The notes under the pieces were generated by a model. That model did not search any database. It saw nothing but the letters and a program-made list of their open reading frames with translations, and had not been told where the DNA came from. A stretch of 8,108 nt of DNA from a virus (taxonomy: Duplodnaviria > Heunggongvirae > Uroviricota > Caudoviricetes), in IMG/VR virus record IMGVR_UViG_2690316086_000017; one strand, written 5' to 3'. Shown here one piece after another: positions 1-1,575 of this stretch; positions within the stretch are counted from its first letter, which is position 1; each line of letters opens with the position of its first letter. The position numbers were made by a program, and so were the translations under genes.

Positions 1-927
1 TCAGCTTTTCGCCAGAACGGTGACGGCCTTATCGAGTTTTTGCCATCCGCAATAGGTGATTGCCCTGAACGCTGTAGCGTCATTCTGGAAAAGGCTAACC
101 GTCCCTGATTCGGTTTTTATTACCGCCTCATCAGTTGGGGTTATAACCGTGGCTTCAACGTTAATAATCAGCTTTTGAGCGTCTATCAGCATCATGCGAT
201 CCGCCTGTTCGCTCACAATTACCGGTATTCTCAAAAGCTCTATCTGCCAGAACTCAGCATCAGTAAGCTGTAAGGCGTTTTCTACGGGCAAGATTAGCGA
301 CGACGTGGCAAGCGTGTTACCGTTCGCTATGTGCTTTTTGAAAAGCTCTATGAAGTTTTCGGCCTCATCAGCACCATTAAGCACGCCCTCAGGGGATACG
401 CCCGCCACCTCCTGGTCACTGGAAAGAAATTTTTTATCTATTTCTTTCACCGATTCCGATGTGATCAAGTCTCTGATCGCTGAATTGGTACCAGGGGTGC
501 TAAATTTGATTAGCTCGTTATTCAGCATCACAATAGCGCCAAGTTTGCACAGTTTTAGCGCACTTTCGTTTACTTCTCCCTCTTTGACAGGGATTTCTTC
601 GGCTTCTTTAAGCCATTTACTACCCTTGCCTGATATTGACTGCAATTTTGCGCCAAACGGAAGATTCAGCGCGCTGCTGATTAGCTTGCCTGGTACAGAC
701 TGCGAAAAAATATACTCGCCAAGCTCTCTTACTATCGGCTCTGCCACCAGCGACGGCATATTATCCGTAGTCATTCCGGCAACAATGGATTTTTCAAGAA
801 ATTTCGATACTGCCGGATCATTTTTTTTCGTCATTTCAATTGCGTCTGCATGGCTGAATTTACACGATGTAAGCACGCTGGCGGCGCGAACTGCCGACAC
901 GCCTTTCATGTTTTTAGAAATCATCAT
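1..927 (-). CDS. HK97-fold major capsid protein-like, 308 aa, no N-terminal delta/scaffold domain
   Basis: Full ORF with stop at 1-3 and tandem ATG at 927/924, preceded by AGGAGG (revcomp of 931-939) about 6 nt upstream. The middle and C-terminal segments (ALKLCKLGAIVMLNNELIKFS; IPVIVSEQADRMMLIDAQKL; SLFQNDATAFRAITY) resemble the conserved blocks of HK97-family capsid proteins as I recall them. Not verified by alignment. Confidence 0.55.
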   Translation of the reverse strand: MMISKNMKGVSAVRAASVLTSCKFSHADAIEMTKKNDPAVSKFLEKSIVAGMTTDNMPSLVAEPIVRELGEYIFSQSVPGKLISSALNLPFGAKLQSISGKGSKWLKEAEEIPVKEGEVNESALKLCKLGAIVMLNNELIKFSTPGTNSAIRDLITSESVKEIDKKFLSSDQEVAGVSPEGVLNGADEAENFIELFKKHIANGNTLATSSLILPVENALQLTDAEFWQIELLRIPVIVSEQADRMMLIDAQKLIINVEATVITPTDEAVIKTESGTVSLFQNDATAFRAITYCGWQKLDKAVTVLAKS

Positions 928-1075
928 CTTCTTCCTCCTGGTAACATGGGGTTAGGGTTTCGTGAAAATATGGCATCAGAACAGCGGCAGCCTGTAACCG
1001 TATTTCGGTTGGCTGCTGCTTGTCGTTCATGATTTCCGTGAGTACATCAATAGGGTCTGTGATGTATTCGCTCAT
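914..1075 (-). CDS. hypothetical small protein, 53 aa, acidic C-terminal tail (QEEEDDDF)
   Basis: ATG at 1075 with GAGG about 9 nt upstream; my own translation is MSEYITDPIDVLTEIMNDKQQPTEIRLQAAAVLMPYFHETLTPCYQEEEDDDF. It overlaps the capsid start by 14 nt and contains the capsid RBS. Too short to appear in the supplied ORF track. Confidence 0.3.
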   Translation of the reverse strand: MSEYITDPIDVLTEIMNDKQQPTEIRLQAAAVLMPYFHETLTPCYQEEEDDDF

Positions 1076-1086
1076 AGTTCGCTACC

Positions 1087-1575
1087 TCAGTGTTTTAAGC
1101 CAGTTGGTGGCTTAGGGATGGGGAACCGATTTGAGGAGACATTAGCGGCATTGAGTTTTTTAACCTCTTTTTTCCCAATGCTGCCGATCTTGCGGTGGGT
1201 GAACTGGGCCAGCTTAAACGCGGCATCTAAAGCCAGTTTTGGATCTGTGTCCATGTTGTCAATCAGTATCCTGCCCATTGCTTTGATGGGGTCGGGTAGG
1301 CCGTTATCCATCATCTCAATGGTGTTAATTGATGCCCGTTCCGGTGTAACTTTTTCGGTAACTTTCTTTGTAACTTTTTTCGGTTTTGTAACCTGAAAAG
1401 TTACATCAGAAGTTACAGCCTTAAGATACTTTTTCACCTCCGGATCATTGGATAGCTGCCAGCCTTTAACCCTTGCAGTCTTTTCGCTGTATCCCGCATG
1501 TATCGCGGCTTCCGTTGGATTTGTGCCCTTTGATAACGCATCAGCAAACCGCTTTTTTTTGGTCGTTAATGCCAT
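1087..1575 (-). CDS. terS: terminase small subunit (TerS, Terminase_2-like N-terminal HTH)
   Basis: N-terminus MALTTKKKRFADALSKGTNPTEAAIHAGYSEKTARVKGWQLSNDPEVKKYL matches the hallmark TerS motif (LT.KQ..F......G.N.T.AAI.AGYS.KTA). ATG at 1575 with GAGG 7 nt upstream. The track's longer version starting at 1713 is rejected because it overlaps the upstream ORF. Confidence 0.8.
   Translation of the reverse strand: MALTTKKKRFADALSKGTNPTEAAIHAGYSEKTARVKGWQLSNDPEVKKYLKAVTSDVTFQVTKPKKVTKKVTEKVTPERASINTIEMMDNGLPDPIKAMGRILIDNMDTDPKLALDAAFKLAQFTHRKIGSIGKKEVKKLNAANVSSNRFPIPKPPTGLKH
1343..1416. repeat. phased GTAACTTT(T) direct repeats plus an inverted GTAAC/GTTAC pair inside terS
   Basis: GTAAC at 1346, 1358, 1370 and 1388 (12-bp phasing for the first three); GTTAC at 1400 and 1412. 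They encode the lysine-rich KVTKKVTEKVT segment of TerS. Confidence 0.6.

Follow-up and report, generated by a model that had tools for sequence, protein, structure and literature searches.

The 8,108-bp stretch of DNA analysed here (hereafter the window; IMG/VR record IMGVR_UViG_2690316086_000017) is nearly the whole of EcCI11368.1, a classical, that is, non-capsid-forming, Gram-negative phage-inducible chromosomal island (PICI) of about 8.5 kb, which resides at the tRNA-Pro gene between yejM and yejO in Escherichia coli of the enterohaemorrhagic (EHEC) type. Beside its integration, regulation and replication genes, the island carries a small terminase gene (terS), an open reading frame (ORF) for a protein of 53 amino acids (aa), and a gene for a homologue of HK97-fold major capsid proteins, and we propose that these genes would redirect DNA packaging and head assembly of HK97-like lambdoid helper phages. 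Taken together with this proposed mechanism, the reading has, in our estimate, a probability of roughly 0.8. Four points were established directly in this analysis: which element this is, where it ends, which genes it contains, and which fold the capsid homologue has. The element has already been catalogued and, as a genome feature, is nothing new; the value that remains lies in the function of the capsid homologue, the 53-aa protein and the island TerS, in a PICI lineage with probable helpers of the Shiga toxin (Stx) phage type.

Identity and borders of the island

The window is 100% identical over its 8108 bp to the chromosome of E. coli O103 strain ML775 (NZ_CP193495.1, positions 1,706,999-1,715,106) and, apart from an 83-bp insertion, is also 100% identical to positions 3041748-3049938 of O26:H11 strain 11368 (NC_013361.1). 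The latter interval falls within the published coordinates of EcCI11368.1, which Table S1 of Fillol-Salom 2018 (ISME J) lists as an 8.5-kb element at AP010953.1 3,041,660-3,050,231, on the yejM side (PMC6092414). A 26-nt arm-type repeat lies at each end of the island; this repeat, reverse-complemented, is the att core as published, small printing differences allowed, and the spacing of the repeats together with the insertion gives the published span (8463 + 83 + 26 = 8572 bp). Both island ends also carry the repeat of the tRNA-Pro 3' end, TGGTCG(G)CACGAGAG. Left of position 1, about 350 bp of further island DNA, consisting of a terminator hairpin, the 26-nt repeat and the copy of the tRNA-Pro 3' end, is followed by yejO, and right of position 8108, the second copy of the 26-nt repeat is followed by the tRNA-Pro gene, 219 bp past the window end. 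The full island measures about 8.5-8.7 kb, with the capsid gene as its last gene. The window and EcCI11368.1 are thus the same element, with the att repeat, the tRNA-Pro/yejM-side integration site and the genes all in common; the published record is a catalogue entry. The two copies differ by one amino-acid change in the 53-aa protein, which has different RefSeq accessions in the two strains, and in the origin-like region, where strain 11368 has three 85-bp repeat units (L006 3239-3439) and the ML775 copy, represented by the window, has two, the 83-bp insertion corresponding to the extra unit.

An 8-kb IMG/VR contig (UViG_2695420855_000011; L028 3601-4288) shows the capsid gene followed directly by the att repeat, a 15-nt fragment of the tRNA-Pro 3' end and the integrase end of an island. 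This order marks a junction of the tandem or circular kind, in support of the 3' end of the tRNA gene as the crossover core. The same contig contains odd internal duplications (1-300 = 4306-4605; 3363-3601 = 7812-8050). The IMG/VR matches are provirus calls from isolate genomes rather than virome particles and have no bearing on packaging.

Gene content and class of the island

All real genes of the window lie on the minus strand, in the order integrase, 76-aa ORF, AlpA-like helix-turn-helix (HTH) regulator, Icd-like and Ash pseudogenes, small genes, DUF4222 gene, RepA helicase gene, iterons, gene for an 81-aa protein, two small ORFs, terS, 53-codon ORF and capsid homologue (Table 1). Neither the Pfam and PHROG scans nor the RefSeq annotation, which was read for the island and for its flanks, revealed a gene for TerL, portal, protease, connector, tail or lysis proteins inside the att borders or adjoining them; in the island itself, the scans of the ORFs and the annotation yielded no head-tail adaptor, HNH or holin gene either. 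An earlier note, made from the sequence of the window alone, had described a satellite with a P4-type int/alpA/rep backbone that carries its own terS and an HK97-like capsid gene lacking a scaffold domain, with a 53-codon ORF alone between the two and neither terL nor portal. This description holds: the integrase and RepA domains were found, the AlpA match is weak, and profile and structure searches agree with the assignments of the terminase and the capsid protein. The flank left of position 1, to which the same note had drawn attention, contains no head, tail or lysis module, and an ordinary prophage structural module was rejected on this ground. A P4-like satellite was rejected as well: the psu-delta-sid capsid-hijack operon of these satellites has no match in any scanned ORF, and only the integrase, the AlpA-like regulator, the ash pseudogene and the Icd-like genes are held in common.

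The architecture conforms to a published class. The PICI core recognized by SatelliteFinder has five components, namely, an integrase, a regulator, a primase-replicase, a capsid-morphogenesis gene and terS, and portal and head-tail connectors are 'forbidden' components of the model (PMC10085698); PICIs with all five components, denoted 'Type A', come from E. coli in 97% of the cases (PMC10085698; de Sousa et al. 2023, NAR). The island has the five core components, an E. coli host, and no portal, connector, tail or holin gene, the class being assigned from gene content against the published definition and with a weak match for the AlpA-like regulator. Under the Type A definition, the gene order that the earlier note had considered unusual, and possibly the mark of an undescribed variant, is therefore the standard one, and the layout is that of a standard enterobacterial PICI rather than a new variant. 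Indeed, some Gram-negative PICIs carry terS, with terS homologues marked on some of the PICI maps in Fig. 1 of the 2018 study, and capsid homologues have been reported in PmCI172 and EcCICFT073 (c1499), with Ccm of SaPIbov5 as a comparison (PMC6092414).

The likeness to capsid-forming PICIs (cf-PICIs) that the earlier note had drawn was not sustained. An undescribed cf-PICI variant would assemble small heads by itself, using the capsid protein that it encodes, and steal only tails; the island does possess an HK97-fold capsid gene and terS, and int, alpA and rep modules are common to cf-PICIs and classical PICIs (bioRxiv 10.1101/2022.09.08.507074), so that the backbone, the HK97-type capsid gene and terS all have counterparts in the cf-PICI EcCIEDL933. 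However, cf-PICIs are defined by the additional portal, protease, head-tail connector, HNH and terL genes with which they make complete heads (bioRxiv 10.1101/2022.09.08.507074), and all of these, as well as any head-tail adaptor, are missing between the att borders; a head made of island proteins alone would be without a portal vertex, a scaffold or a maturation protease. Furthermore, the element has been catalogued among the classical PICIs, and published trees separate the capsid and TerS proteins of PICIs almost perfectly from those of cf-PICIs. A cf-PICI variant is, accordingly, extremely improbable.

A capsid homologue without scaffold domain

The 308-aa product of the last gene matches the Pfam family Phage_capsid (PF05065) with E=1.1e-6 and 28.8 bits (cut-off 24.2) and a PHROG major head protein profile with 1.4e-10, and in tblastn searches annotated phage major capsid proteins were matched over 94-97% of its length. 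When a profile of 68 sequences of the capsid family was compared to the PDB, capsid proteins only were retrieved (9d9w, 1.3e-21; phage 80alpha, 6b0x, 2.7e-12). An AlphaFold model built from the 68-sequence alignment reached a predicted local distance difference test (pLDDT) score of 93.5 and a predicted template modelling (pTM) score of 0.89, and was used in place of a model from 4 close sequences, which was useless (pLDDT 37). The best Foldseek matches of the model are HK97-fold proteins of Bxb1, Muddy, SaPI1/80alpha, HK97 and the SaPIbov5 procapsid, with E-values down to 1.7e-13; the alignments to HK97, 80alpha, Bxb1 and others have a probability of 1.00 and cover about 260-290 columns. Members of the family were drawn from an exhaustive representative search, a word-indexed protein search having given 3 and then 6 relatives; a scan of genome contigs with the capsid protein found no relatives.

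Related phages, introduced as candidate helpers below, encode a 645-aa fusion of an S78 protease and a PF05065 capsid protein, and the island protein aligns at 23% identity to residues 291-633 of this fusion. By this alignment, the capsid homologue is the shell-forming part only, without a protease, S78 or scaffold domain. In the helper, scaffold, protease and capsid protein form one polypeptide, which makes it improbable that a homologue lacking the scaffold could assemble a shell by itself. The example of Ccm points to co-assembly with the helper capsid protein, into satellite-sized heads, as the most likely role. Ccm is 24% identical to the capsid protein of its helper, sits in pentamers and is sufficient for the formation of small heads (PMC8569155). 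SaPIbov5 (Carpena 2016; Hawkins 2021) and the island resemble each other in the divergence of the capsid homologue from the helper capsid protein (about 23-24% identity), in the HNH-dependent cos phages that serve, or would serve, as helpers, and in a helper-like cos region on the satellite. They differ in that SaPIbov5 has no terS of its own and belongs to a Gram-positive lineage; the effect on head size is proven for Ccm only, the island protein being likened to it by sequence divergence and satellite context. A second parallel comes from PmCI172 of Pasteurella multocida, a small island of 7.8 kb with a major-capsid homologue and small heads (PMC6092414), although its helper is a Mu-like myovirus, and the likeness is one of description, the role of the capsid homologue being putative there too.

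The capsid homologue of a PICI appears to belong to the capsid family of its helper. Here, this family is PF05065, whereas the capsid homologue of EcCICFT073, which exploits lambda and phi80, is of the lambda gpE type (PF03864), is followed by a gpD-like decoration protein (L016 8669-10071), and is unrelated to the island protein. The match of families in both PICIs fits a protein that must fit the helper's shell.

Alternatively, the capsid homologue could be mainly an interference factor, that is, a poison or decoy subunit, with the island packaged as multimers in full-size heads. This is how EcCICFT073 is packaged (PMC6092414), classical PICIs strongly interfere with their helpers (bioRxiv 10.1101/2022.09.08.507074), and the island, at about 1/6 of the helper, is very small; moreover, a homologue without a scaffold domain must enter helper assemblies in any case. 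Conversely, the available precedents, Ccm (PMC8569155) and the correlation seen for PmCI172 (PMC6092414), both go with small heads. The present data do not separate the two roles, but we regard interference as the principal function as rather unlikely.

Two observations concern the wider family. A loop of roughly 15 residues close to the C-terminus (alignment A2, columns 303-318) is missing from the window protein and its two closest relatives, and is present in more distant short capsid-homologue members and in the helper-type capsid protein. A 28%-identical short member (P0013; L005 3596-8108) is encoded in the order terS, 556-aa protein, capsid, portal, where the 556-aa protein is probably TerL; this order implies that the short capsid family also occurs in phage-like or cf-PICI-like contexts.

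Small terminase and 53-aa protein

The match of the island TerS to Terminase_2 is confined to the N-terminal 55 residues, and that to phrog_641 extends over the full length. The protein is 47% identical to TerS of Stx-type lambdoid phages, with the identity distributed unevenly: 58% over residues 1-57, the DNA-binding part, 19% over residues 58-88, and 71% over residues 89-136. The ratio of non-synonymous to synonymous substitution rates (dN/dS) of terS is 0.24.

The 53-aa protein matches positions 89-126 of the small terminase profile phrog_641 (E=8.2e-7), and tblastn gives weak matches (3e-3 to 0.2), nearly all of which, among those listed, lie inside annotated terS genes. Thus, the protein weakly resembles the C-terminal part of small terminases. 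A BLASTP comparison to the island TerS, the helper TerS, the helper TerL and the protease-scaffold part of the helper fusion gave no match, and hhalign against a 4-sequence TerS alignment gave a probability of 0.2%, so that the TerS-like nature of the protein is read from the PHROG profile and the weak tblastn matches only. Given this resemblance, the ORF may be a stranded 3' end of terS that has been kept as a small protein.

Selection, distribution and mobility of the cassette

Both the capsid gene (dN/dS 0.12-0.14) and the 53-aa ORF (0.15-0.22) are under purifying selection. The 53-aa ORF and its overlap with the capsid gene are kept in the island of strain PV15-279, at 97% nucleotide identity, and in a metagenomic relative at 80% amino-acid identity of the capsid protein, in which all three genes are retained with the same start/stop overlap; reading frames are intact also in a relative at 52% identity (P0003). 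The cassette of terS, the 53-aa ORF and the capsid gene is found at 97% identity or higher in 220 of the 5426 complete E. coli genomes, mostly of serogroups O26, O111, O103 and O157, and the assembly collection has 7664 indexed blocks that contain the exact sequence of the 53-aa protein.

In the O157:H7 strain PV15-279 (L007 10999-18833), the packaging cassette recurs at 97% identity with all six genes, namely, the three named above and the three small genes upstream of them. The backbone of this PICI is a different one: its integrase is not the same, a DNA primase replaces RepA, and the integration site, cspD-clpS, is that of EcCIIHE3034 and EcCI18098. Here too, the capsid gene lies close to the distal border of the island, and a single small hypothetical ORF is all that follows it. 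The presence of the cassette in two backbones indicates that it moves between PICI backbones as a unit.

These observations bear on the possibility that a deleted head module, of either a prophage or a cf-PICI, left behind the capsid gene and the 53-codon ORF, which would now be functionless and in decay. The likeness of the 53-aa ORF to a stranded terS 3' end, the other pseudogenes in the window copy and the lack of a phenotype for c1499 of EcCICFT073 (PMC6092414) would all accord with decay. However, decay is hard to reconcile with the low dN/dS among relatives down to 80% amino-acid identity, with frames intact even at 52% identity, with the same six-gene cassette closing the island at its border in two different backbones, and with the abundance of the cassette in genomes and assemblies. 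The low dN/dS and the conservation indicate that the genes are maintained rather than debris, and we hold the remnant scenario to be quite improbable.

Putative packaging signals

Seven of the eight copies of the heptamer AAGTTAC in the window fall between positions 1346 and 1618, where they are either inside terS or in its non-coding leader; 0.74 copies would be expected across the whole window. The stretch 1346-1416 is 100% conserved in comparison to the metagenomic relative with 80% identity, whereas the remaining cassette is 65-93% conserved, and the synonymous divergence (dS) of the capsid gene from the same relative is about 0.7. The heptamer does not occur in the helper-type module; instead, a helper-type phage has the palindrome GTTAAC five times upstream of its own terS (L002 1419-1538). 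The AAGTTAC and GTTAAC sets look like element-specific TerS-binding sites.

Directly upstream of the island heptamers lies a block of about 80 nt that occurs once in the window and has counterparts, at about 80% identity, in the HNH-terS intergenic region of helper-type lambdoid prophages (L015 8711-9000, in a prophage of ML775; L017 2501-2579). The terS coding DNA is less conserved than this non-coding block and, save for one short stretch, is below blastn detection. Furthermore, the genome of Lys8385Vzw, an induced phage of an O103:H11 host, starts and ends inside the block in its deposited form. The simplest reading of this arrangement would be a cleavage site shared by island and helper, recognized by the helper TerL and HNH proteins, beside element-specific TerS-binding repeats. 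EcCICFT073 (Fillol-Salom 2018, 2019), which resembles the island in its kinds of backbone genes (DUF4222, Icd-like, AlpA-like HTH) and keeps, as is proposed here, a helper-like cosN next to a different cosB, has no terS and reaches a comparable retargeting through Rpp, which redirects the phage TerS (PMC6739421). By this analogy, the island would reach the same outcome with a TerS of its own.

A different packaging mode would be headful (pac-type) packaging, as in SaPI1, driven by the island's own TerS, with the 80-nt block being a regulatory or leader element inherited together with terS. PICIs with their own terS are classically pac-type (PMC6092414), and repeats inside terS genes are typical of pac sites. 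Yet, the candidate helpers show the HNH-terS-terL arrangement of HK97-like cos phages, and the block in question is non-coding, more conserved than the coding DNA, and positioned exactly at the start and end of a deposited phage genome. Headful packaging is, in our view, the less probable mode.

Candidate helpers and proposed mechanism

The island TerS (47% identity) and the capsid homologue (23%) match the same phages, namely, Stx1a-, Stx2- and Stx2c-converting phages and a group of lambdoid phages labelled "PPompW". In these, the head module has the order HNH endonuclease, terS, terL, protease-capsid fusion and portal, and under the proposed scheme cos would lie between the HNH gene and terS. 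The ML775 genome contains three places that match the helper-type module, and of the 60 helper-module genomes listed, at least 10 also bear the island. It is likely, judging from these matches, that HK97-like, HNH-cos lambdoid prophages, Stx phages included, are the helpers. In one of the three ML775 copies that was looked at (L015 13435-16019), the portal gene is frameshifted.

Thus, we propose that a resident or infecting HK97-like lambdoid phage, many of which are Stx-converting, would switch on the AlpA-like regulator, after which the integrase would excise the island and RepA would replicate it from the iterons just 3' of rep. The island TerS would bind the island-specific AAGTTAC repeats that lie within terS and shortly before it, and its helper-like C-terminal segment would recruit the helper TerL, and the HNH protein with it, to cut at the helper-like cos block, so that island DNA would be packaged instead of phage DNA. 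The capsid homologue would join the helper protease-scaffold-capsid fusion and bias assembly towards satellite-sized heads, as Ccm of SaPIbov5 does, whereas the portal, connectors, tails and lysis functions would be supplied by the helper.

Several points weigh against this mechanism. For this particular element, induction, the identity of the helper, the packaging mode (cos or headful) and the effect on the capsid are all inferred. The match of the regulator to AlpA is below the Pfam cut-off, and given the ash and Icd-like pseudogenes, the window copy may be poorly inducible. The related terS-bearing PICIs EcCIIHE3034 and EcCI18098 transferred poorly in one published test, with no more than 40-110 transductants per ml. 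The record of Lys8385Vzw is flagged as circular, so that its start may not be a mapped terminus. With regard to head size, the capsid homologue has no delta domain, unlike Ccm, in which this domain is cleaved; the 8.5-kb island amounts to only about 1/5-1/7 of the helper genomes (44-58 kb) and is smaller than a shift from T=7 to T=4 would suit; and deletion of c1499, the capsid homologue of EcCICFT073, had no phenotype (PMC6092414), so that a PICI capsid homologue need not redirect head size.

A more far-reaching scheme, which we put forward only tentatively, would extend to terS-bearing E. coli PICIs in general. These might subvert HK97-like, HNH-dependent cos prophages of EHEC in three ways: through a TerS whose cosB-like specificity is new and directed at AAGTTAC repeats beside a copied helper cosN, through a scaffold-less capsid homologue that enters helper shells and shrinks or spoils them, and through a 53-aa mimic of the TerS C-terminus that blocks assembly of the helper terminase. 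If this three-part hijack is real, the satellite would lower Stx-phage output in O26, O103, O111 and O157 strains. More generally, with EHEC lambdoid prophages, including Shiga toxin phages, as the likely helpers, any interference by the satellite would bear on the spread of Stx phages and on toxin release.

Other features of the island

The features of the window are collected in Table 1. The AlpA-like protein scores 17.9 bits against Pfam AlpA, under the cut-off of 21, and is a weak match that fits in position and size. The GTGGGGA iterons span positions 2439-2553, next to the rep gene, and PICI replication origins lie 3' of rep (PMC6092414). A scan for sigma-70 promoters detected none that could serve the packaging cassette, and profile scans gave no family match for the two small ORFs that travel with it.

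Table 1. Features of the 8,108-bp window, listed by position
Feature	Positions	Strand	Support and remarks
HK97-fold major-capsid-protein homologue, 308 aa, WP_000624042.1	1..927	-	PF05065, PHROG, AlphaFold/Foldseek; RefSeq start 924
53-aa ORF	914..1075	-	Overlaps capsid start by 14 nt
Small terminase subunit TerS, 162 aa	1087..1575	-	Terminase_2 4.8e-11; phrog_641 6e-44
Five AAGTTAC copies within the terS gene, candidate cosB- or pac-like binding sites of TerS	1346..1416		Three direct and two inverted, 12-bp spacing
Two further AAGTTAC heptamers, non-coding terS leader	1600..1618	-	
Block of ~80 nt in common with helper-type HNH-terS intergenic region, candidate cos cleavage region	1620..1700	-	blastn 80-81%
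Two small ORFs, 53 and 64 aa, moving with the packaging cassette	1703..2062	-	Annotated; conserved in both island backbones
Terminator-like hairpin between 81-aa gene and packaging cassette	2157..2174	-	L001 14174-14157
81-aa conserved protein, phrog_1231 (function unknown)	2193..2438	-	PHROG E=5.8e-48
Iteron array, candidate replication origin, directly 3' of rep	2429..2558		Two ~85-bp units, GTGGGGA x5
RepA-family helicase / replication initiator, 466 aa	2557..3957	-	AAA_25 2.6e-43; phrog_2850, phrog_906
DUF4222 protein, 99 aa	3954..4253	-	Pfam E=2.1e-23
Four small genes, one Icd-like	4259..5111	-	RefSeq annotation
Ash-family and Icd-like pseudogenes in window copy	5142..6149	-	RefSeq annotation
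AlpA-like HTH regulator, 68 aa	6164..6370	-	Pfam AlpA E=0.0028; PHROG excisionase/transcriptional regulator 2.5e-6
P4-type tyrosine integrase, 413 aa	6867..8108	-	Arm-DNA-bind_3, Phage_int_M and Phage_integrase; beside tRNA-Pro

The Ash gene is intact in other copies of the island, where it encodes a 186-aa protein of family PF10554; in O26 strain 11368, as in the window, the annotation gives the Ash-family gene and one of the Icd-like genes as truncated pseudogenes. A 409-aa ORF at 4920-6149 is spurious. The plus-strand ORFs at 5611-5784, with a weak Arc-like match, and at 5827-6015 are not annotated in ML775 and probably correspond to minus-strand genes that are called at the same place in other island copies and encode proteins of 57 and 59 aa.

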